This document shows, one piece after another, positions 643 to 43,046 of a DNA stretch of 64,000 bases (position 1 is the stretch's first letter; every line of letters begins with the position of its first letter). The notes below the pieces were generated by a model. The model searched no databases and was not told the origin of the DNA. It saw nothing but the letters and a program-made list of their open reading frames with translations. Source of the stretch: Candidatus Kaiserbacteria bacterium (GTDB lineage: Bacteria > Patescibacteriota > Minisyncoccia > Phycocordibacterales > UBA2100); assembly GCA_028286585.1 (NCBI GenBank), contig JAQBRI010000011.1, positions 1,648 to 65,647 of the forward strand, in the 5' to 3' direction. Made by a program: the position numbers and the translations under genes.

Positions 643-1419
643 ATGCAAACTTCTACACAAGAAACATTTATCAAAAAAATCCCTTCTCCAATTGAGGCTT
701 TTAAAATATTGTTGCGCGCTGACTTTACTGTGCAGTTACGGCAGCGACGTTCGCTCCTAATGAGTCTTATTACGCCGATTATCTTTCTTCTCGCGTGGAA
801 GAGTCTTATTCCTGAGATTGGCGCGGCATCCGTACTTTCTATCTGCGTAGCAATCGGTCTTCCTGGCACCGGTCTGATGGGATATTCGAATACATTAGCA
901 AATGACAGGGAACGCGGCATCTTTCAACGTTTACGCGCATCTCCGATACCAACATGGGTCATAATGCTAAGTCGTATTATCGTACAGCTCTCGGTGCTTA
1001 TACTTATGGCGCTTGTCACGTGCGGTGTAGCGTACTTTGCCGACGGAATCACTTTTGGCTTTGGTAACCTTTTGCTTATTCTTGTCGCCTCTGCAATTGG
1101 AGGCCTCGCTTTTTTGGCCTTAGGGCAAGCAATTGTTGCATTAATGCGCAGTAGCGATGCCATAAATGCGACAACTCGTTTGCTTTATATGGTCATTGCA
1201 GTGGTAGGAGGTCTGGGACAAACAGGATTATTTGGGGCAGTACTTCAAAAAATAGTAACTTACTCACCACTCGGTACCAGTAAAACAATGATTGTGGCAG
1301 CAATGAATCCTGCCAGTATTTTTACCTGGCCTGTCATGTTTGCTGTAGTTATAACTCTTGCGTACGGACTCTTTTTTGCAATCATTGGAATACGTTTCTT
1401 TAAGTGGACAGTTAATTAA
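643..1419 (+). CDS. ABC-2 type transporter permease
   Basis: 258-aa protein with about six hydrophobic helices, directly downstream of the ABC ATPase (ATPase stop and this start 5 nt apart). ATG start. Confidence 0.7.
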   Translation: MQTSTQETFIKKIPSPIEAFKILLRADFTVQLRQRRSLLMSLITPIIFLLAWKSLIPEIGAASVLSICVAIGLPGTGLMGYSNTLANDRERGIFQRLRASPIPTWVIMLSRIIVQLSVLILMALVTCGVAYFADGITFGFGNLLLILVASAIGGLAFLALGQAIVALMRSSDAINATTRLLYMVIAVVGGLGQTGLFGAVLQKIVTYSPLGTSKTMIVAAMNPASIFTWPVMFAVVITLAYGLFFAIIGIRFFKWTVN

Positions 1420-1499
1420 AGGTAGTAATTAATTCCAACCAATAATAATTAATGAGATCTAACTCAAATTCTCCCAAACAGAAGTGATATAATCTCTTT

Positions 1500-1976
1500 A
1501 TGGCGCATTTAAATTATTCTGTCGATTTGTGTGCAGATGCATATATTGTCAATGGTAGTGCAGTGCTTTTACGTCTTCATGAAAAATATAACTTTTGGAT
1601 AGCTCCAGGCGGTCATGTAGACCCTGGTGAAGATATTAATCAAGCAGTACTCAGAGAGATTTGGGAAGAAGTTGGACTGAAAGTGGAACTTGTAGGACCG
1701 AACACCTGGCAAAAGCAGGATTTTGATATTAATAAGGATCTGGTGCCTCCAATTTTTGTGAATAGACATGCAATAAATGAGCACCATGATCACTCTTCAT
1801 TTATTTTTGTTGCAAAGTCTGATACTCGAGAAATAAAACCCCAAGAGGAGGCGAGTAAATATACTGAATGTGTTTGGGTAACAAAAGTGGAATTGGATGC
1901 AATGTTTAATAATGATTCTCGGTTGCGGCAAGATGTATATCGATATGCCTCTGCCGCTCTTGATCTGGTTAAATAA
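1500..1976 (+). CDS. NUDIX hydrolase
   Basis: Canonical Nudix box: GGHVDPGEDINQAVLREIWEEVGL (Gx5Ex7REUxEExGU). Confidence 0.85.
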   Translation: MAHLNYSVDLCADAYIVNGSAVLLRLHEKYNFWIAPGGHVDPGEDINQAVLREIWEEVGLKVELVGPNTWQKQDFDINKDLVPPIFVNRHAINEHHDHSSFIFVAKSDTREIKPQEEASKYTECVWVTKVELDAMFNNDSRLRQDVYRYASAALDLVK

Positions 1977-1985
1977 AAACGCCCT

Positions 1986-2342
1986 ATGAAAAAAGAAAAT
2001 CTTTATGCGACGAGTTTTTCAAAAGTGTATCCGTACTATATTGTAAAGGCCGAGAGAAAAGGCCGTACAAAGGCAGAGGTCGATGAAATCATTCGATGGC
2101 TAACGGGATATACTCAGAAAGGATTAGAAACGCAACTGAAAAGACAAACTGATTTTAAAACTTTTTACGGCAAAGCTCCCAAAATGAATTCTGCACGTTC
2201 TCTAATCACAGGAATGATTTGCGGAATAAGAATAGAAGAAATAGAAGATCCACTTATGCGGGAAATTCGTTATTTGGATAAGCTGATAGCTGATTTAGCA
2301 AAGGGTTGGCCGATGGAAAAGATTAAGCGACAGACAAAATAA
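1986..2342 (+). CDS. DUF2200-like small protein
   Basis: 118-aa protein. The sequence pattern ([28 protein letters not shown] ... [14 protein letters not shown]) matches my recollection of the DUF2200 family. A short hairpin (ccccatg-tttc-catgggg) follows the stop. Confidence 0.55.
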
Positions 2343-2387
2343 AAACCCCATGTTTCCATGGGGCTGCCTCCAAAGAGGACTTATTGT

Positions 2388-2885
2388 TCAGCAGTCGGCG
2401 TAAGCAATTGGTCCGGCCTGCATCTGGATTTGGAGACGGATAAGAGTCCCTTCATCCCTGGGCTTGGGTGTACCGATTTGGCCTCCGCAGCAGTTCAAGA
2501 ACGTGAGCTGCTTGCCGTGGCAAACATGTCTTTCGACGAGCGGACGTACGGCATCGGACGCATGGATGCGGATAAGCTGCTTGCCGAGTTTCGAGTTGGG
2601 GTTTTCTGTCCACAAAACCACACCCTGCTGCTTGTCGGCCTCGTGGGCACGATCATGCAAGTAGGCGATTGCCTCGGGACAATCCCGACGAACCGCCTCA
2701 ATGAGTACGCTTTCGGCGTCTTTCGACGAAAGTGCTTGGAGAGACAGGCCGCGTTCTGCGGCGATTGCTACGACTGACGGAAAGGACATAATCCACCTTG
2801 TAGGTTGAATACTGGCGATCTTGCCAGCGTGCCCTCCGGCATATATTTCGGAGGGCACGCTAACAACATCAATATGTATGAGCAA
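2388..2885 (-). CDS. hypothetical protein in a high-GC patch (strand and frame uncertain)
   Basis: The roughly 500-bp stretch 2380-2800 is clearly GC-richer (~55%) than its flanks. The minus ORF (TTG start overlapping the stop of the upstream ATPase gene by 17 nt, internal ATG at MSFPSV) is co-directional with that upstream gene. A plus-strand ORF 2358-2777 also exists and has a higher third-position GC. No recognisable motif in either. Confidence 0.3.
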   Translation of the reverse strand: MLIHIDVVSVPSEIYAGGHAGKIASIQPTRWIMSFPSVVAIAAERGLSLQALSSKDAESVLIEAVRRDCPEAIAYLHDRAHEADKQQGVVLWTENPNSKLGKQLIRIHASDAVRPLVERHVCHGKQLTFLNCCGGQIGTPKPRDEGTLIRLQIQMQAGPIAYADC

Positions 2886-3543
2886 GTATCATTTCTGTCG
2901 CGAGTAGCGTATCAATTTCTATACCTGCGTTTTTATTATTAACTATAATGTGAGGCACTTTCGCAATTTCAAGCTCACGTTTTATTTGCTCGGCCACACG
3001 TTTACTATTGATAGTTGGCTCTTGCACAATGACTGCCAAGTCCACACCCGAAAGAATACCGGTTGCAACAGGATCTGTGCCTGCACGTTCATCAATAACT
3101 ACTGCTTCATCTTGATTGAGAGTAAGAAGCGGCAAATACACCTTAAGCGGAGCAGCAAGTGAGTGACTACAGGATTCTTGCGAACGGACTCTGTCTGTAT
3201 GCGGGCCTGCTGTTATAAGACGCAATCCATTTTCCAGTTCAGCTGATACACTGGCTGTAAACGCGTCGAGTGGGGACAGGGTAAAGATAACTTTGCGATC
3301 TTGAGCCACTTGCAGAGCAGCATCGTATGTTCCAGCGCGTGTAGACCCGACATACTCTTTAATGCGATCGGGGTCGGCCCCAAGAAACAAAGAAGGTTCT
3401 GCTTCCAAGTTATACGAAAGATCCATATTATGATCTGCATCTATAGCGAGTACTTTCATGCCGCGTGCGCGTAGTTGTCGCACAAGAGCTGTTGCCATAG
3501 TTGATTTGCCCGACCCTCCTTTTCCAAGAAATGCTATTTTCAT
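2869..3543 (-). CDS. ParA/MinD/CooC-family P-loop ATPase
   Basis: The N-terminal deviant Walker A (KIAFLGKGGSGKST), AIDADHN, and overall length of about 224 aa resemble CooC/MinD-type ATPases. ATG start, TGA stop. Confidence 0.75.
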   Translation of the reverse strand: MKIAFLGKGGSGKSTMATALVRQLRARGMKVLAIDADHNMDLSYNLEAEPSLFLGADPDRIKEYVGSTRAGTYDAALQVAQDRKVIFTLSPLDAFTASVSAELENGLRLITAGPHTDRVRSQESCSHSLAAPLKVYLPLLTLNQDEAVVIDERAGTDPVATGILSGVDLAVIVQEPTINSKRVAEQIKRELEIAKVPHIIVNNKNAGIEIDTLLATEMILAHTY

Positions 3544-3721
3544 ATTGCGTTGTTTTATAAATTTTTTTGATGATAAAGTGAATGCATTCAGGAGTCAGCC
3601 CACAGGGGTCGATGCCTGCGGGCTTGCTTCTAATTACAAACGCAATTGTGTTGCATTTACAATGTAGCACTCTGGAATACTAGTTGCAATCTTGTTGCGT
3701 TTATGATATCGTGGTGTAGTA

Positions 3722-4147
3722 ATGACTAAAACAGCGCCTAACTTTGAGGAAATATTGCGTGAGGGTGGCTATAAGGCCACCCCAGGGCGCGTCCTTTTGC
3801 TTAAGACTCTCTTTGGAGAGGAAAAGCCAGTGACCGTTTCCTACTTGGAGAAAAAGCTTAAAAGCGCAATTGATAAAGTAACGCTCTATCGCGCACTTGA
3901 TTCGATGGTAGTCTCAGGAGTAGTACGTGAGGTGGATTTTCGCCACGGTCATGCACACTATGAACTTCAAATATTGCGCAAACATCACCATCATATTGTC
4001 TGCACTAACTGCGCACTTGTTGAGGATGTTGATTGCAATACCGAGCCATTTGTAAAACAGGTAGAAAAAAAATCCAAAAAATTTGATTTGATCAGCGATC
4101 ACTCTACGGAATTTTTTGGTCTATGCAAAAATTGCACTAAAGTTTAG
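3722..4147 (+). CDS. Fur family transcriptional regulator
   Basis: Fur-like winged helix (VTLYRALDSMVVSGVV), His-rich metal site (HGHAHYE ... HHHHIVC) and CxxC ... CxxC (CTNC ... CKNC). Confidence 0.85.
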   Translation: MTKTAPNFEEILREGGYKATPGRVLLLKTLFGEEKPVTVSYLEKKLKSAIDKVTLYRALDSMVVSGVVREVDFRHGHAHYELQILRKHHHHIVCTNCALVEDVDCNTEPFVKQVEKKSKKFDLISDHSTEFFGLCKNCTKV

Positions 4148-35633: not shown

Positions 35634-37127
35634 ATGATTTTCAGTTCACTTCGTAAGTCTTCGAGCGCGCAAAGCCGCTCGGACCTCTACCTTCATAATA
35701 CGCTCGGCAACGAGAATCAGATTTTTAAACTTCCTCCTATCGCGCGCTATGTGCGCATGTACAACTGTGGCCCTACCGTTTATGGCGAACAGCACATCGG
35801 CAATCTCTCGATGTTTGTATTTACCGACGTACTTCGTCGCGTTTTGCAATATCATGGGCATGAGGTAAAACAGGTCATCAATATCACCGATTTTGGGCAC
35901 CTTTCCGGCGATAATCAGGGCGATGCAGATATTGGCGAAGATCGCATGACAAAGGGCTTAAAACGCGAAAATATGGCCATTACGATGGAAAATATGGCCC
36001 TCTTGGCCGAGAAATACACTCAGGTGTTCTTGGGTGATTTAACGACGCTCAACATCGATGTTTCCAAAATAGAATTTCCTCGAGCAAGCGCCTATGTGCC
36101 AGCGCAAATTGCGATGATTCAAACCCTTATCGAAAAAGGATATGCGTACCAGTGCGCGGACGGTGTCTATTACGATACATTGCGATTCCCTGATTACGGC
36201 ATATTGGGTGGCATCGATTTAGAAGGTCTTAAGGCTGGTGCTCGTGTTGCAATGAGTAGTGAGAAGCGACACCCAACCGACTTTTTACTTTGGAAGTCTG
36301 ATGCGAGCATTGGATGGGAGTCACCATGGGGTAAAGGCTTTCCTGGCTGGCATATCGAATGTTCTGCAATGGCGCGTGCAGTATTAGGTGAGCAAATAGA
36401 CATTCACACGGGTGGAATAGAACACATTCCGATTCATCACAATAACGAAATTGCACAGTCCGAAGCAGCGACAGGCAAAAAGCCATTCTCACGTTTTTGG
36501 ATGCATCGTGCACACCTGCAGATCGACGGCGGGAAAATTGCAAAGTCAGATGGTAATGTTGTGTATCTTTCAGAAATAATTGAGCGTGGCTTTCACCCCA
36601 TCGCTTTTAGATACTTGTGTCTGGGTGCGCATTACCGAACGAATGCTAACTTTTCGTGGGATGCACTTGCCGCTTCGCAGTCGGCACTCGTGAAGCTTAC
36701 GGCGTTTTACCTAGAACATGCCGATCTTAATGCAGTAGACGCCCCGGTCAAGTGGCAGAACGAATTTGATCATCGTGTTAACGACGACTTGGATACGCCA
36801 GGTGCTCTTGCTACCGTATGGGCAATGCTCAAGAGTGATGACTACAGCACACCAGAAAAGCTCGCGGCACTTCGCACCGTTGACATGGTACTTGGTCTTA
36901 CTATTACCGAGCCAGACGAGCAGCTGCGCACACTTGCACAAGCTGAAATACGGACAGAGATTCCAATGAGTGAACTTCCAGAAAATATCCGGGCACTTGT
37001 ACAAGAGCGCGAAGAAGCTCGCACAAACAAAAATTGGTCCAAATCCGACGAACTCCGCGCAACCCTCACCTCCCTCGGCTACTCCCTCGATGACGCAAAG
37101 AGTGGCGTTAAGGTGTACAGAATCTAA
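35634..37127 (+). CDS. cysS: cysteine--tRNA ligase
   Basis: HIGN (EQHIGNLSM), Zn-binding Cys (YNCGPTVY ... HIECSAM), KMSKS-equivalent KIAKSDG. Length 497 aa. Confidence 0.9.
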   Translation: MIFSSLRKSSSAQSRSDLYLHNTLGNENQIFKLPPIARYVRMYNCGPTVYGEQHIGNLSMFVFTDVLRRVLQYHGHEVKQVINITDFGHLSGDNQGDADIGEDRMTKGLKRENMAITMENMALLAEKYTQVFLGDLTTLNIDVSKIEFPRASAYVPAQIAMIQTLIEKGYAYQCADGVYYDTLRFPDYGILGGIDLEGLKAGARVAMSSEKRHPTDFLLWKSDASIGWESPWGKGFPGWHIECSAMARAVLGEQIDIHTGGIEHIPIHHNNEIAQSEAATGKKPFSRFWMHRAHLQIDGGKIAKSDGNVVYLSEIIERGFHPIAFRYLCLGAHYRTNANFSWDALAASQSALVKLTAFYLEHADLNAVDAPVKWQNEFDHRVNDDLDTPGALATVWAMLKSDDYSTPEKLAALRTVDMVLGLTITEPDEQLRTLAQAEIRTEIPMSELPENIRALVQEREEARTNKNWSKSDELRATLTSLGYSLDDAKSGVKVYRI

Positions 37128-37192
37128 ATAAAATTGAATGCCTCAAATATATTCGCTTGCTATATTTTATAGTGAAGACTATCATTGCGCAT

Positions 37193-37870
37193 ATGAAGTG
37201 CCCCTATCCAGATTGTCAAAAAGACTATAACCAGAATTGGCAAGATTTTTTTCGTGGATGGCTATGGAATCAGGACGATTACCCGTCGGATAATGAAAGA
37301 CATCTGCTCAAGCGAGTTAATCTTCACACGAGGCGCTGCCATTTTTGTAGTCGCCTTTTCCATGATATTTATATAGGAAATGAAAATCCAAAAATATTTG
37401 ATGATGCTACTAAGAGATTTATACAGGCTGCACCAGATCTCGAATTAATTGCTAGTTATCCCGCATCAAAAACATCCTTTAAGGCCAAGAAAGTTCCGGA
37501 AAACATTCGTAAATATTTTCATGAAGCGGAACGTTGTCGCTCAATTGGTGCGATGACAGGTGTAGCAGCATGCTTAAGAAAAACAGTATATGCAATCTGC
37601 GACGATTTAGGGGTAGGCGGGATTGATTACAAAGAAAAAATATCAAACTTACCCTTGAAAGAGGAGGTCTACAAAGAACTGTTGAAGCAAATAAAATTCC
37701 TCGGTGACAATGGCACTAAGCCGGGTGGCGATATTTATACATCAGATCAGATAGACATAGCTCTAAAAGTTTTGCCAGTCGTTATTGATAAACTCTATGA
37801 GCAAGACGAGCAAATAGACGAGGCCCAAAGAGCCTTGGCACACGCAAGATCCAAAGGACTTCAACTATAA
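37193..37870 (+). CDS. zinc-ribbon + DUF4145-like (HEPN-like) protein, degenerate motif
   Basis: CPYPDC ... CHFC zinc ribbon. C-terminal domain aligns with its neighbour's DUF4145 domain (AACLRKTVYAICDDLG ... IKFLGDNGTKPG) but lacks the His of the R..GN.aAH motif. The ATG at 37193 is preferred to the TTG at 37157. Confidence 0.5.
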   Translation: MKCPYPDCQKDYNQNWQDFFRGWLWNQDDYPSDNERHLLKRVNLHTRRCHFCSRLFHDIYIGNENPKIFDDATKRFIQAAPDLELIASYPASKTSFKAKKVPENIRKYFHEAERCRSIGAMTGVAACLRKTVYAICDDLGVGGIDYKEKISNLPLKEEVYKELLKQIKFLGDNGTKPGGDIYTSDQIDIALKVLPVVIDKLYEQDEQIDEAQRALAHARSKGLQL

Positions 37871-37876
37871 ATTAGA

Positions 37877-38521
37877 TTATACGTCGTTCTTTTTCTTACT
37901 ATCGATCACTGCTTGTACCGCCTTAAGTTTGGAGGGAGCTACATATACGTATTCAAGAATCGTAGTAAAAAAATCATCTATTATTCTTGCGTCTTCAAAA
38001 CCTACTTTTGTGTCAGTTGCGTGCGCCCCGACGTTACCAAAAAATCTTAAAGCAGTAGTCATCTTTGACAAAGTTGGGGGGATAATTTCCTTCTTTACCA
38101 GATCATTTAGCTGATTAACGAGATTTTTTCCAACTGCATGCTGATCTTTACAAATATATTCCAGACAGCGACGTATTAATACGGCGAAAGCAATTGGGGA
38201 TATTCTAAATACACGTTTAGCCTCCGTATAATTTTCTATTATAACAAGAGGGACACTGCCGTCATATTTCTTGGAACTTGGGTAAAGTAAAAAAGCTTCG
38301 TTCAAATCCCCCAAGTCTGCACTTTCACCCCAATCAGAATAAAGCGAAAACTCAGAACAATTTTTACATTGTGCCAAAAATAAATAAGTTTCAACTTCTC
38401 TATCATCCCCCGGATGAAATTCTACTATTTCACTTTTACCTTGAACATGGAAAATTACTGTTTGCGAAGTTTTTTGATGACAATGTTGGCAATTTATCAA
38501 TTGCAACTTCGATGTAGTCAT
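37877..38521 (-). CDS. zinc-ribbon + DUF4145 (HEPN-like) protein
   Basis: CQHC ... CKNC zinc ribbon. C-terminal VLIRRCLEYICKD ... ALRFFGNVGAHATD ... ARIIDDFFTTILEYVY fits the DUF4145 consensus, including R..GN.aAH. Confidence 0.55.
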   Translation of the reverse strand: MTTSKLQLINCQHCHQKTSQTVIFHVQGKSEIVEFHPGDDREVETYLFLAQCKNCSEFSLYSDWGESADLGDLNEAFLLYPSSKKYDGSVPLVIIENYTEAKRVFRISPIAFAVLIRRCLEYICKDQHAVGKNLVNQLNDLVKKEIIPPTLSKMTTALRFFGNVGAHATDTKVGFEDARIIDDFFTTILEYVYVAPSKLKAVQAVIDSKKKNDV

Positions 38522-38523
38522 AC

Positions 38524-41403
38524 TTATTTAATTACAAAATTCACCAACTTATTAGGTACTACGATCACGCGGATGATGTTTTGATCTTTAAGGCGGTCGG
38601 AGGCGATGGTGCGAGCGATCTTTTCAAGAGTTTCATTATCGGTGTCGGTGGCTGCGCGGAACTGCTCGCGCATTTTCCCGTTGATAGATACCATAATAGT
38701 TACTTCGGACACTGCCAAAAATTTCTTATCGGCCTTTGGCCACTTTTCGAGGTGTATCGACTTTTTGTTACCAAGCACACTCCACATCTCCTCAGTTATA
38801 TGCGGAGCAAACGGTGCCAATATTCGTAGGAATGTTGCCAATTGCTTCTCCCCTACCCCCTTTTTTTCTACCTCGTTTACAAAAACCATCATTGCGGAAA
38901 CTGCGGTATTAAACTTCATTTCCTCTATATCCCCACCCACCTTTTGAATACACACATGCAATGCGTGGTTAACATCTGCTACTTCTTTCTTTTGTACAAT
39001 ATCCTGCAGTCGCCAAATACGATCGAGAAAGCGTTTTACGCCCACCATGTTGTTGGTGTTCCAGGCAATCGATTCGCCAAATGGACCCATAAACATTTCA
39101 TAGACTCGCAGCGTATCAGCGCCAACTGCTTTTATTATTTCGTCAGGGCTCAGCGCATTGCCTTTTGACTTACTCATCTTTGCCCCTCCTTCGGCCAAAA
39201 TAAGCCCATGGCTCGTCCGTTTTATATAAGGCTCGCTTGTGGGTACTAGTTTAAGATCGTAGAGGAATTTGTGCCAAAAGCGGCTGTACAGCAAGTGGAG
39301 TGTTGTGTGCTCCATACCTCCGTTGTACCAGTCAACTGGAGTCCATTTCTTTAAAAGTGTTTTGTCGGCAAGAGCTTTTTTGTTCTTTGGATCAACATAT
39401 CGCAAAAAGTACCATGATGAACCTGCCCAGTTTGGCATCGTGTCAGTCTCGCGGCGTGCCCAGTTTTTGCACTGAGGACATTTTACCCGCAGCCACTTTT
39501 CCATAGTCGAAAGCGGAGATTCTCCGTCGTCTGTTGGTTCGTACTTTTTGACGTTGGGAAGTTTGACCGGCAAATCCTTTTCTGGCACAGGAATCCATCC
39601 AAGTGTCTCTGGATTCTTAAGGCCACAGTATTCACAGCGGATCATTGGAATTGGTTCGCCCCAGTATCGCTGACGAGAGAAAACCCAATCACGAAGTTTG
39701 AACGTTGTTATCATCTTGCCTCCCACCTCATCAACAATCTTTTTCATTGCTTCGGCACTTTCCATTCGATTATAAGTACTCGAATTAGACAGTGTGCCGT
39801 AGTCAGTATAAATTCCCCCGTTACCACTCAAGACTTTGAGAAAGTACTGGTGCGTATCTGCAGTCAAGAATTTAGCGAGCTCTGCTTTTGTAAGCCACAT
39901 GACCTCGTGCATTGCTTCCTCTTTTGTATCTACCGAAACTCGCTCGTCGTTTTCAAGCTCAAGATACACCATGTGTGCATGAGAATTGCGATTGGTCTTT
40001 TTTGGAACGTGATAAAACTTGCCGTGTACAATTCCATAATCTTTTACAAAGCGTGCATTCTTGTATCCTACCTCTTCGAGCAGTTCTGCTTTTGCTGCAG
40101 TCTCTGGTGTCTGTCCCTTCTCGATACCTCCGGTAATAAAAGTGCCCCATGCAACCTGTTTCCACTTAAGACCAATGTATTTGTCTTCTGACCAATGTTT
40201 TACGACTGCAATAATAGCTTCACGATGATCAAATGGTTCACCCTCCCGAATCTTGCCTGGCTCTGTTGTCTGACTGTAGGTTGGTTCGATCACCTGCCTT
40301 ATCGGCAAATCAAACTTTTTTGCAAACTCATTGTCGCGCTGATCGTGCGCTGGTACTGCCATAATAGCGCCAGTACCGTAGTGTGCGAGTACATAGTCTG
40401 CAATATAGACTGGAATCTTTTCTTTATTCGCTGGGTTGATAGCCCAAATGCCTTCAAGGCGTACACCTGTCTTTTCTTTGCCTTCGGCAGTACGTTCGAT
40501 TTCGGGTTTGTTTTTTGCGGCTTTTGCATACGCTCGCACTGCATCTTCATTATTCAAAAGTCCCTTGTGCGTAAGTGAAAGTGTTACAAACAAATGATCT
40601 GGCGCGAGTACCAGGTATGTCGCTCCAAACAAAGTGTCTGGGCGTGTGGTAAAGACTGCAAGAGAACCATCTTGTGCCTTGGGTTGATTATCAAATGTTA
40701 CGGCAAAATTTATTTCGGCACCCTCACTTTTACCTATCCAGTTGCGCTGCTGTGTTTTGATTTTTTCCAGATATTCGACACCATCGAGATCGTTGTACAA
40801 ACGTTCTGCATACTTGGTAATTGCAAGCATCCATTGCTCTTTCTCACGTTTTTCGACAACACTTCCGCAACGTTCACAGCATCCGTCGACGACTTCTTCG
40901 TTTGCGAGCCCAATCTTATCGACTGGGCACCAGTTAATAGGCATCTTACTTTTGTATGCAAGACCTTTTTTGTACATCTGCAAAAAGATCCACTGCGTCC
41001 ATTTGTAGTATTCGGGATCAGTGGTATTGATCTCGCGTGACCAGTCAAACGAAAATCCTATTCGCTTGAGTTGTTTGCGAAAGGTATCGGTATTTTGTTT
41101 TGTAACTTTTGCCGGATGAATACCAGTTTTGATGGCGTAGTTCTCGGTTGGAAGTCCAAAGGCGTCCCATCCTATTGGATACAAAACGTCGTACCCTTCG
41201 GCACGACGCTTGTGGGAAATAATATCCATTGCAGTGTTAGATCGCACGTGTCCAACATGGAGTCCGCTACCAGATGGGTACGGGAACTCGATAAGGGCAT
41301 AGAACTTCTTTTTGCCTGCCACTTTTGGCGCTTGCCAGATTTTGGACTTTTCCCACTTTGCCTGCCACTTTTTTTCGATTTTGTTGTGGTCGTACTTGCT
41401 CAT
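38524..41403 (-). CDS. leuS: leucine--tRNA ligase with NUDIX-fold insertion
   Basis: HVGHVRSNTAMD (HIGH), the TTRPDT and AVPAHDQRD editing-domain motifs, KMSKS. About 135 extra residues between IRQVIEP and FKLRDWVFSRQRYWG contain a Nudix-like fold (WGTFITGGIEKGQTPETAAKAELLEEVGY). The ATG at 41403 (MSKYDHNKIEKKWQ) is preferred to the GTG at 41412. Confidence 0.9.
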   Translation of the reverse strand: MSKYDHNKIEKKWQAKWEKSKIWQAPKVAGKKKFYALIEFPYPSGSGLHVGHVRSNTAMDIISHKRRAEGYDVLYPIGWDAFGLPTENYAIKTGIHPAKVTKQNTDTFRKQLKRIGFSFDWSREINTTDPEYYKWTQWIFLQMYKKGLAYKSKMPINWCPVDKIGLANEEVVDGCCERCGSVVEKREKEQWMLAITKYAERLYNDLDGVEYLEKIKTQQRNWIGKSEGAEINFAVTFDNQPKAQDGSLAVFTTRPDTLFGATYLVLAPDHLFVTLSLTHKGLLNNEDAVRAYAKAAKNKPEIERTAEGKEKTGVRLEGIWAINPANKEKIPVYIADYVLAHYGTGAIMAVPAHDQRDNEFAKKFDLPIRQVIEPTYSQTTEPGKIREGEPFDHREAIIAVVKHWSEDKYIGLKWKQVAWGTFITGGIEKGQTPETAAKAELLEEVGYKNARFVKDYGIVHGKFYHVPKKTNRNSHAHMVYLELENDERVSVDTKEEAMHEVMWLTKAELAKFLTADTHQYFLKVLSGNGGIYTDYGTLSNSSTYNRMESAEAMKKIVDEVGGKMITTFKLRDWVFSRQRYWGEPIPMIRCEYCGLKNPETLGWIPVPEKDLPVKLPNVKKYEPTDDGESPLSTMEKWLRVKCPQCKNWARRETDTMPNWAGSSWYFLRYVDPKNKKALADKTLLKKWTPVDWYNGGMEHTTLHLLYSRFWHKFLYDLKLVPTSEPYIKRTSHGLILAEGGAKMSKSKGNALSPDEIIKAVGADTLRVYEMFMGPFGESIAWNTNNMVGVKRFLDRIWRLQDIVQKKEVADVNHALHVCIQKVGGDIEEMKFNTAVSAMMVFVNEVEKKGVGEKQLATFLRILAPFAPHITEEMWSVLGNKKSIHLEKWPKADKKFLAVSEVTIMVSINGKMREQFRAATDTDNETLEKIARTIASDRLKDQNIIRVIVVPNKLVNFVIK

Positions 41404-41446
41404 ATTGAACACTCTATCATGTGGAATATGATCAAGCTATATTGTG

Positions 41447-42388
41447 TTACTTGGCTTGAATGGGTGCTTGTACTGGGTATCGCTTTGGGTCGATAGTACG
41501 GTCAAAGCACACATGTCCGGGGCCATGCGTCCATGAATCTCCTCCATTTCCATATGGACCTGTTGGATATGCGACATTGCCCGAACCTTGTGACTGTTCG
41601 TTAAAGTCTGCACACAATTCAAACGTATTCTTGCCGGTCACCTTGTATTCGAACGGTAGGTTTGTTTGCGGATCCATTGGAACCGAATATCCGGCTGTAG
41701 AATCGTTGAGTACATTGAGCTGATCTGGCAGCTTGTTCTCACGCTGCCAATATTGAATGATTTGTTCCTGAATGTTTTGGAGGCTTGTTACCTTTTGATC
41801 ATCATATCGATACATACGAGTCTGCTGTGGTGTGCCAAATATGACAAAGCCCGAGAGAATCGTCGCAACGACAAGCACAATCACTCCAATCGCTACATGT
41901 TGTGCGTATTTTGGATTTTGTTTCCAGTAGCCACGTACATCAGCCAAAAAGTGCATAAAGCCGATACTCGCAATGCCAATGATAATGACAGCCTTGAGAA
42001 TGAATGCCTGCGCAATCTCACCACTGAGAAAGTCGTTGATGACATATACCAGTGTGCCTACGATCGTAAGACCACTAATAAAAAGCGTAAGGTACAGCGC
42101 CCAGCGACGAACCCATATTTCTGCACGCGACGCGTCGGCAGCAATCGACTGTCGGATAAAGTACATAAGTGCAAAAAATACTGGTACAAGCACAATAAGC
42201 GAGGCCATTTCAAATCGCACCGATCCACTAGAAAAGTCGACGTAATAATAAGGATTCAACGGATCTGGATACACCTTGTCGATGTAATCAAAAAACAAAT
42301 TAATATATGCTATAACGCTCCAATAAAGTGATACCATCGCCCCTGCCCAAAGAAAGAAATCCTTTGGTGTGGTTTTGTTATTATTCAT
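41447..42388 (-). CDS. hypothetical integral membrane protein (possibly DUF5671-like)
   Basis: Five or six TM helices at the N-terminus, then a Gly-rich soluble C-terminal domain. No catalytic motif recognised. Confidence 0.45.
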   Translation of the reverse strand: MNNNKTTPKDFFLWAGAMVSLYWSVIAYINLFFDYIDKVYPDPLNPYYYVDFSSGSVRFEMASLIVLVPVFFALMYFIRQSIAADASRAEIWVRRWALYLTLFISGLTIVGTLVYVINDFLSGEIAQAFILKAVIIIGIASIGFMHFLADVRGYWKQNPKYAQHVAIGVIVLVVATILSGFVIFGTPQQTRMYRYDDQKVTSLQNIQEQIIQYWQRENKLPDQLNVLNDSTAGYSVPMDPQTNLPFEYKVTGKNTFELCADFNEQSQGSGNVAYPTGPYGNGGDSWTHGPGHVCFDRTIDPKRYPVQAPIQAK

Positions 42389-42452: not shown

Positions 42453-43046
42453 ATGGAGGTCATACTATCCACTCGCAATCCAACTAAAATCAAACAGATT
42501 CAGGCGGTATTTGCCGATTCGAGTATTAAAATACTTAGCCTTGATGAAGTAGGTATTTCTGGCGAAGCAATCGAAGACGGAACTACTCTTGGCGAAAATG
42601 CATTTAAGAAAGCTCGCTATGCATACGACAATTCCGATAAATCCCGCTGGTGTATGGCAGATGATACTGGAATATTTATTGCATCTCTCAATAATGAGCC
42701 AGGAATATACGCAGCACGATGGGCTGGTGAAGGCGCTTCGACAGAAGACACGATGGCCTACGCACTCAAACGACTTGAGGGACAGCAAGATCGCAGTGCA
42801 ACATTTAAAACATTTGTGGCAGTTGTCTCGCCCGAAGGAGTAGAGTATTCATTTGAAGGAGCCGTTGAGGGCACGATGCGAGAATCTGCAAACGTCTCCC
42901 CGCAACCAAAGATGCCCTACAGTCCCCTATTTGTACCAAACGGATATACGCAATCGTGGTCAGAAATGACAACCGAAGAAGAAAATAAAATTTCTCACCG
43001 CGGCCAAGCTTTTCGTAAAGTCAGATCATTCTTAGAATCCATTTAA
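42453..43046 (+). CDS. non-canonical purine NTP pyrophosphatase (RdgB/HAM1 family)
   Basis: MEVILSTRNPTKIKQ (Ham1 N-terminus), FVPNGYTQSWSEMTTEEENKISHRGQAF (C-terminal Ham1 motif). The ATG at 42453 is used instead of the upstream TTG. Confidence 0.8.
   Translation: MEVILSTRNPTKIKQIQAVFADSSIKILSLDEVGISGEAIEDGTTLGENAFKKARYAYDNSDKSRWCMADDTGIFIASLNNEPGIYAARWAGEGASTEDTMAYALKRLEGQQDRSATFKTFVAVVSPEGVEYSFEGAVEGTMRESANVSPQPKMPYSPLFVPNGYTQSWSEMTTEEENKISHRGQAFRKVRSFLESI

Follow-up and report, generated by a model that had tools for sequence, protein, structure and literature searches.

A Nudix domain inserted in the CP1 editing domain of leucyl-tRNA synthetases from the Candidate Phyla Radiation

Few enzymes have been studied as thoroughly as the aminoacyl-tRNA synthetases, whose extra domains usually hint at new biology, for instance editing, signalling, or regulation. 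On a 64,000-nucleotide stretch of contig JAQBRI010000011.1 from a Candidatus Kaiserbacteria bacterium (this whole stretch is hereafter called the window), the leuS gene encodes a leucyl-tRNA synthetase (LeuRS) that is interrupted by a long additional segment, which raises the question of what this segment is, where it enters the enzyme, and what it may do there. An earlier note on this DNA had read the segment as a NUDIX-fold domain located at the leucyl-specific-domain position. The present analysis supports the fold, revises the position, and considers the occurrence, conservation, and possible roles of the module across the Candidate Phyla Radiation (CPR, Patescibacteria).

The inserted module and its position in LeuRS

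Between the LeuRS motifs DLPIRQVIEP (last residue aa 377) and FKLRDWVFSRQRYWG (first residue aa 571) there are 193 residues in the window protein (residue numbers throughout refer to the 962-aa open reading frame, ORF), close to the ~195 counted before, and the same stretch comprises ~50 residues in the Thermus thermophilus enzyme (Tth LeuRS), which leaves ~150 residues extra. The extra residues contain a Nudix domain: the Pfam NUDIX model PF00293 matches aa 414-524 (E=6e-11, 42.9 bits) and scores 47.0 bits on the excised insert alone, in both cases well above the gathering cutoff of 21.1 bits, so that the profile search proposed in the earlier note bears out its assignment. The module has the alpha/beta/alpha fold of Nudix proteins and is a well-folded, independently folded Nudix domain, whose extent agrees with the previously proposed interval 39820-40275 (aa 380-531). 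Its Nudix box departs from the full 23-residue pattern GX5EX7REUXEEXGU and reads GX5QX7AELXEEXGY, with Tyr in place of the final U and with the two substitutions for which the box had already been described as degenerate, namely Gln for the first Glu (Q434, position 7) and Ala for Arg (A442, position 15). The metal-binding glutamates of the EX2EE core (E443, E446, and E447) and G449 are retained.

The alignment with Tth LeuRS pairs residues 4-385 of the window protein with Tth residues 1-372, and residues 535-740 with Tth residues 377-579, and in the Pfam scan the editing-domain model PF13603 is split by the insert (aa 223-382 correspond to profile positions 1-147 of 185). Because of these two results we place the insert inside the CP1 editing domain, which it interrupts ~30 residues past AHDxRD, between Tth residues 372 and 377; the insertion site is a surface loop of this domain. 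The same alignment rules out the leucine-specific-domain position. This domain (Tth residues ~580-634, just before KMSKS) has no counterpart in the window LeuRS, as residue 740 aligns to Tth 579 and residue 743 to Tth 635, with ~55 Tth residues unmatched and no insertion in the region before KMSKS, and the remainder of the segment (YTDYGTLSNS...VDEVGG), earlier taken for the leucyl-specific domain, is the C-terminal part of CP1 (Tth residues 377-417). Insert-free LeuRSs of related lineages (L084, L089) likewise have no leucine-specific domain, and therefore the insert is not a cis replacement for it. The gene and the parts of the protein discussed here are the following.

38524..41412 (-), leuS, bacterial-type leucyl-tRNA synthetase (NCBIfam TIGR00396, Pfam, NCBI identity)
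41248..41259 (-), HVGH, the HIGH signature of the synthetic site, aa 52-55 (read from the sequence)
40282..40746 (-), CP1 editing domain, N-terminal part, aa 223-377 (PF13603 and Tth alignment up to residue 372)
40633-40650 (-), Thr-rich motif TTRPDT of CP1 (read from the sequence)
40333-40359 (-), AVPAHDQRD with the conserved editing Asp (read from the sequence)
39811..40281 (-), inserted Nudix module with short linkers, aa 378-534 (Pfam PF00293)
39703..39810 (-), CP1 editing domain, C-terminal part, aa 535-570 (aligns to Tth from residue 377, then YRLRDW)
39166..39201 (-), ILAEGGA-KMSKS, aa 738-749, the spot expected for a leucine-specific domain (Tth LeuRS alignment)

The host protein scores 931.8 bits with the NCBIfam equivalog model leuS_bact (TIGR00396; cutoff 548.4), aligns to Tth LeuRS with E=3.6e-202, contains the Pfam domains tRNA-synt_1, tRNA-synt_1_2, and Anticodon_1, and is 100% identical to the NCBI entry 'leucine--tRNA ligase [Candidatus Kaiserbacteria bacterium]' (P0153). 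HVGH, KMSKS, TTRPDT, and AHDQRD are all present, and AHD..D was found in 118 of 119 LeuRS homologues; the equivalog score, the HIGH and KMSKS signatures, the Thr-rich motif of CP1, and the conserved Asp identify the protein as a LeuRS of the bacterial type. Judged from these motifs, the synthetic and editing sites appear intact and the enzyme complete and functional-looking. The 962-aa ORF begins with GTG, three codons upstream of the ATG at 41403 from which the 959-aa protein annotated by NCBI starts (start region 41403-41412), and this ATG is likely the true start.

An intein or another recent mobile insert was considered and rejected: the Pfam scan revealed no intein family at E<=1, the junctions (VIEP|TYSQ and GGI|YTDY) do not display the splice pattern of a C-terminal His-Asn followed by Cys, Ser, or Thr, the GC content of the insert (0.442) is not anomalous compared to the rest of leuS (0.450), and the module is 45-75% identical among relatives. 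An assembly or frameshift artefact was likewise rejected: no break interrupts the ORF, and the architecture recurs in 95 species-level genomes as well as in each of the 120 closest homologues.

Occurrence and conservation of the module family

With the insert as query, a word-index search returned just two proteins, namely a fragment of a LeuRS (73% identity) and a free-standing Nudix protein of 163 aa (57% identity). When 1.84 billion representative proteins were searched exhaustively with a profile, 435 clusters were obtained at E<=0.001, including 232 at E<=1e-10. The LeuRS-linked modules thus form a small, specific, and distinct Nudix family, as opposed to the Nudix superfamily in general. 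LeuRS segments were present in 102 of the 150 best family representatives, the other 48 being mostly proteins of 150-210 aa, tandem-Nudix proteins, or short fragments (two fragments with a match to the LeuRS editing domain), and among these 150 no synthetase or enzyme host other than LeuRS was found. A scan of one genome per species detected the family in 95 genomes, essentially all from CPR/Patescibacteria (Paceibacterota, Saccharibacteria, Moranbacteria, Sungbacteria, Taylorbacteria, and others); as the scan relied on two peptide patterns characteristic of the clade to which the window belongs, the numbers of species and of site types are minimum values, biased towards that clade. PF00293 matched 120 of the 120 closest LeuRS homologues, whose database names are simply 'leucine--tRNA ligase' or 'class I tRNA ligase family protein'. 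The objection anticipated in the earlier note, that such a length could be normal in this lineage, is therefore valid in part: the insert is lineage-wide in CPR, but what it adds is a Nudix domain and not an ordinary LeuRS element.

The module does not occupy a single position in LeuRS. Site B, the position seen in the window (after aa 377), accounted for 75 modules, most LeuRSs having one module there, whereas site A (after aa ~211-244, before CP1) carried a module in 13 LeuRSs, mostly with a second one at site B. Some LeuRSs contain tandem modules, the copy number per LeuRS ranges from 0 to 3, and in the representative set three proteins (P0038, P0056, P0070) carry the module also in the C-terminal half of LeuRS. 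Modules from different positions can be the nearest relatives of each other (61-72% identity), and therefore the module has moved between positions. Other hydrolases have entered related CPR LeuRSs, either before CP1 or in the C-terminal catalytic half, including alpha/beta-hydrolase domains of the Ser_hydrolase/thioesterase-like type (L004 aa 244-399, L019 aa 252-422, P0171 aa 750-905), HAD phosphatases (P0200; L043 aa 1022-1176, in a 1539-aa LeuRS which carries three Nudix modules in addition to the HAD domain), a Ham1 NTP pyrophosphatase (P0212 aa 250-390), and a DUF559/MTES_1575 endonuclease (P0231). CPR LeuRS is therefore a hotspot for inserted hydrolases.

Conservation within the family was assessed on 155 modules, which share 21-59% pairwise identity with the window module (58-sequence subset). 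The complete E-E-E triad of EX2EE was found in 147 of the 155, with E443 in 154, E446 in 149, and E447 in 154 modules, and G428, G429, and G449 are kept in 149-152 modules. In addition to the box, a signature R..K..NR..E...H...W is common to LeuRS-embedded and free-standing modules, each of its residues (R397, K471, N474, R475, E498, H502, W506) being retained in 126-151 modules. The residues concerned in the window module are located as follows.

40063..40131 (-), Nudix box GGIEKGQTPETAAKAELLEEVGY, aa 428-450, with Gln at position 7 and Ala at position 15 and with E443, E446, and E447 kept
40222..40224 (-), R397, family-signature Arg on the first long strand (Arg in 146/155 modules)
40012..40017 (-), aromatic pair F466-Y467, 16 and 17 residues past the box (Phe or Tyr at both positions in 140/155 modules)
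39988..40002 (-), K471-x-x-N474-R475, family-signature basic hairpin (K in 151/155, N in 151/155, and R in 132/155 modules)
39895..39921 (-), E498...H502...W506, family-signature residues past the box (E in 136/155, H in 126/155, and W in 149/155 modules)

The canonical Glu and Arg of the box occur in 72% of the family modules, and the subtype of the window (Gln at position 7 with a residue other than Arg at position 15) in ~15%. These two positions co-vary (Glu with Arg 112, Gln with non-Arg 23, mixed 3; Fisher p=8e-23, a value without phylogeny correction), and their joint change has the appearance of a concerted loss of two interacting residues and not of decay. Among close LeuRS homologues, the majority-residue frequency is the same in the module as in the anticodon-binding domain (0.59 in both).

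Free-standing members of the family are encoded by genes of ~160 aa, and their gene context was covered for 11 lineages. In 6 of the 11, each an independent lineage, the gene directly precedes leuS in the same orientation, the two being 2-47 nt apart or overlapping in their reading frames, and in a seventh (P0012/L084) it is found 2.4 kb upstream. No other evidence for a functional link of the family with LeuRS is as strong as this combination of fusion in some lineages with adjacency in others. The free-standing and other Nudix genes referred to in this and the following paragraph are listed below.

P0002/L001-3, L038, L050, P0042/L088-90, P0043, P0019/L091: free-standing family genes directly upstream of leuS
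L001 4492-5022; also L012, L038, L042, L048, L050, L057, L059, L060, L064, L065, L067: second small Nudix gene downstream of leuS
1500-1976 (+) of the window, standalone Nudix gene, 158 aa, canonical box GGHVDPGEDINQAVLREIWEEVGL (Pfam 59.9 bits)

The L001 LeuRS (914-3763) has no Nudix insert, though a free-standing family gene precedes it, and at the start of CP1 (aa ~248-375) it bears an insertion of ~125 aa that has no Pfam match. In the window, the gene directly upstream of leuS encodes a DUF5671 membrane protein (41447-42388, minus strand); the order DUF5671, free-standing Nudix, leuS was found in L088 and on the P0043 contig, so that the synteny is kept with the Nudix either inserted or free. 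Many Saccharibacteria loci contain a second, unrelated small Nudix gene with the box GHIEEGETSKETAEREIMEETGL, located 1-2 kb downstream of leuS and, in L001, adjoining nusB and the RNase III gene. The standalone NUDIX gene that had been pointed out at 1500-1976 is indeed there, with an intact canonical box. It was considered as a donor or paralogue of the insert and rejected, since it scores 32 bits on the family HMM (hidden Markov model) compared with 190 for the insert, a difference which assigns it to another Nudix family. Between cysS (35634-37127) and leuS, two convergent DUF4145 genes are located (37157-37870, plus strand, and 37877-38521, minus strand), both with N-terminal Cys-rich stretches. 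ARAGORN found no tRNA or tmRNA gene in the 64-kb window, and hence no tRNA-Leu gene there.

Possible roles of the module

Known non-catalytic Nudix domains have lost the box glutamates, as in NUDT21 with RLX2EI, and box variants are tolerated by some active Nudix enzymes (PMC5389931). Because the triad, the signature, and the overall conservation of the module are kept, and because the glutamates are precisely what the non-catalytic domains have lost, we infer that the module is probably catalytically active. The Nudix domain in the CP1 surface loop would then be a Mg2+-dependent pyrophosphohydrolase working beside the synthetase on a nucleoside-polyphosphate compound, the likeliest candidates being dinucleoside polyphosphates (ApnN) or similar compounds that arise from the adenylate as by-products at the aminoacylation site. 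Aminoacyl-tRNA synthetases make diadenosine tetraphosphate (Ap4A) from aminoacyl-adenylate and ATP, and Ap4A is degraded by Nudix enzymes such as NUDT2 and RppH. It is because of this synthetic activity that we tentatively favour a module which is active while tethered to LeuRS and hydrolyses nucleoside polyphosphates as ApnA/RppH-type enzymes do (ApnA, diadenosine polyphosphate).

The indications as to the substrate are weak overall. The best named NCBIfam matches of the module are RppH models, at 27.5 bits at best and without reaching their equivalog cutoffs (116-259 bits). After PDB entry 2azw, the structural neighbours include the Ap6A hydrolase Ndx1, the Mycobacterium tuberculosis diadenosine polyphosphatase Rv2985, DDP1/DIPP1, RppH, and several Ap4A hydrolases. 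The aromatic pair F466-Y467 stands at +16/+17 from the box, and +17 is the X-loop position of the specificity Tyr in ApnA hydrolases; a Tyr on this loop is a weak marker of the RppH/ApnA subgroup. A Tyr downstream of the box is known to have a role in these hydrolases (PMC5389931). R397, K471, R475, and H502 would be suited to a polyphosphate chain. The CoA pyrophosphatase, NADH pyrophosphatase, and ADP-ribose pyrophosphatase subtypes were considered and rejected, as neither a NuCoA nor an SQPWPFPxS motif was found in the sequence and the corresponding NCBIfam matches were weak and below cutoff.

Several observations weigh against an active hydrolase of this type tethered to LeuRS. The window box itself has Gln and Ala where the first Glu and the Arg are expected; 4 of the 11 free-standing members (P0022, P0030, P0036, P0047) are not near leuS; LeuRS is not known as a strong Ap4A producer; clearing of Ap4A does not obviously explain why LeuRS should be the sole host or why some LeuRSs should carry three copies; and the unrelated hydrolase inserts of related LeuRSs suit permissive loops filled with cargo at least as well. 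Under this last explanation, the module would be an active, general nucleotide-sanitising Nudix enzyme that owes its place in insertion-tolerant loops of LeuRS, or in the operon of leuS, solely to the constitutive co-expression gained there in a streamlined genome, with no mechanistic link to leucylation. Relatives' LeuRSs do carry other hydrolases of the house-cleaning type at the same or other loops, the module's position within LeuRS and its copy number (0 to 3) are not fixed, some free-standing members reside away from leuS, and in the window a gene of the Ham1 family (non-canonical NTP pyrophosphatase; 42453-43046, plus strand) is located two genes away from leuS; the inserts in LeuRS may originate from genes nearby. 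However, LeuRS is the sole host among the 150 best family representatives, repeated insertion and relocation in one protein combined with the strict upstream adjacency of the free-standing genes is more specific than expected from operon convenience, and separate generic Nudix genes, such as that at 1500-1976, are present in these genomes. We regard house-cleaning cargo as possible but doubtful, and rank it only slightly below the LeuRS-tethered hydrolase.

Non-catalytic, RNA-directed, and inhibitor-detoxifying roles are less likely than either of these two. Non-enzymatic Nudix domains exist (PMC5389931), and a structural, tRNA-contacting, or ligand-sensing Nudix fold, for instance one that compensates for the missing leucine-specific domain or binds a nucleotide signal that tunes LeuRS, would agree with the off-consensus residues Q434 and A442, with the absence of the leucine-specific domain from the window LeuRS, and with several copies per LeuRS, which fit scaffolding. 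We nevertheless find such a module improbable, as 147 of 155 modules keep the metal-binding triad along with the polar, basic signature, and the insert-free LeuRSs L084 and L089, which lack the leucine-specific domain as well, indicate that the insert is not needed in cis as a substitute for this domain. An enzyme resembling RppH in acting on RNA 5' ends, which would take a nucleotide cap or pyrophosphate off tRNA-Leu or off some other LeuRS-bound RNA, is suggested by the RppH models among the best named matches, by structural neighbours that include RNA-bound E. coli RppH and the decapping enzymes AvrM14, DDP1, and NUDT3, and by the fact that CP1 handles the tRNA acceptor end. It seems very unlikely, because all RppH scores are far below their cutoffs, mature bacterial tRNAs bear a 5' monophosphate left by RNase P, and no link of the module to RNA was found in this analysis. 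Most improbable of all would be self-protection, in which the Nudix and other hydrolase inserts destroy natural aminoacyl-adenylate mimics aimed at LeuRS. This idea draws by analogy on NCBIfam NF040702, an isoleucyl-tRNA synthetase (IleRS) carrying a GNAT domain, and on the GNAT, peptidase, and phosphoramidase enzymes that detoxify aminoacyl-nucleotide antibiotics, and chemically different hydrolases do occur within the same target enzyme; Nudix enzymes, however, are not known to cleave acyl-phosphate or phosphoramidate mimics.

Known systems and the meaning of the LeuRS-Nudix architecture

Hydrolytic modules that occur either inserted in a synthetase or as small separate proteins are familiar from the INS domain of ProRS and YbaK/ProXp and from the AlaRS editing domain and AlaX, and the LeuRS Nudix family follows the same pattern. 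Compared to these editing domains, the LeuRS module has a Nudix (pyrophosphohydrolase) fold and is not an aminoacyl-ester hydrolase, and it comes in addition to a CP1 editing site that is intact, at variable positions and sometimes in several copies. NUDT2, E. coli RppH/NudH, T. thermophilus Ndx1, M. tuberculosis Rv2985, and Chlamydia CT771 resemble the module in the Nudix fold, the EX2EE metal site, the X-loop aromatic residue, and the basic residues; ApnA-degrading Nudix enzymes and RppH are among its nearest structural and sequence neighbours and degrade a synthetase by-product. They differ from it in that they share 15-21% identity with the module, do not have the R..K..NR..E...H...W signature proper to its family, and are in no known case fused to a synthetase. 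The best solved relative of the module, PDB 2azw (an uncharacterised MutT/Nudix protein from Enterococcus faecalis, 17% identity), comes from a Firmicute, is free-standing, and lacks the K..NR and E...H parts of the signature. NadM-Nudix and the IleRS with a GNAT domain (NF040702) also combine a house-keeping enzyme with a second catalytic domain; in contrast to these end-to-end fusions, the LeuRS Nudix lies inside CP1, and CP1 in turn interrupts the Rossmann fold. The LeuRS-Nudix host-guest pair is not among the known bifunctional Nudix enzymes or extra-domain synthetases that we compared.

In line with the earlier remark that a Nudix module inside an aminoacyl-tRNA synthetase is not something known to be described, a full-text literature search on Nudix, LeuRS or leucyl-tRNA synthetase, CPR or Patescibacteria, and domain insertion found no description of this architecture. 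A 205-protein review of the Nudix clan contains neither the word 'tRNA' nor the word 'synthetase' (PMC5389931). The sequences themselves are not new, as hundreds of database entries already display the architecture in their precomputed Pfam annotations, and extra-domain synthetases and bifunctional Nudix enzymes are already known kinds of protein. What is of interest is that one domain has been inserted into another (CP1), that this insertion is spread over CPR lineages, that it is mobile between sites, and that a free-standing partner gene exists.

The present annotation 'leucine--tRNA ligase' hides a Nudix module, and across a large radiation an essential synthetase carries a second catalytic fold with preserved active-site residues. 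The 'Rosetta-stone' pattern, in which the same fold is found either inserted or encoded by a partner gene, means that a functional link of Nudix chemistry with leucylation can be put to a direct test. Should the module clear by-products of the Ap4A type or others derived from the adenylate, the CPR LeuRS would be the first case of a synthetase equipped with a by-product hydrolase of its own; should the module be cargo, this LeuRS would be a striking example of an essential protein serving as a carrier of house-cleaning enzymes in minimal genomes. A broader proposal, which we consider unlikely but worth stating, is that the CPR LeuRS comprises a third hydrolytic centre beyond synthesis and CP1 editing, in which the Nudix site, joined in some lineages by the alpha/beta-hydrolase, HAD, and Ham1 inserts, would destroy nucleotide by-products generated at the synthetase or adenylate-like poisons aimed at it. 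Were this true, it would represent a previously unrecognised form of synthetase-linked quality control, exerted in cis by the inserted module or in trans by the product of the gene upstream of leuS.

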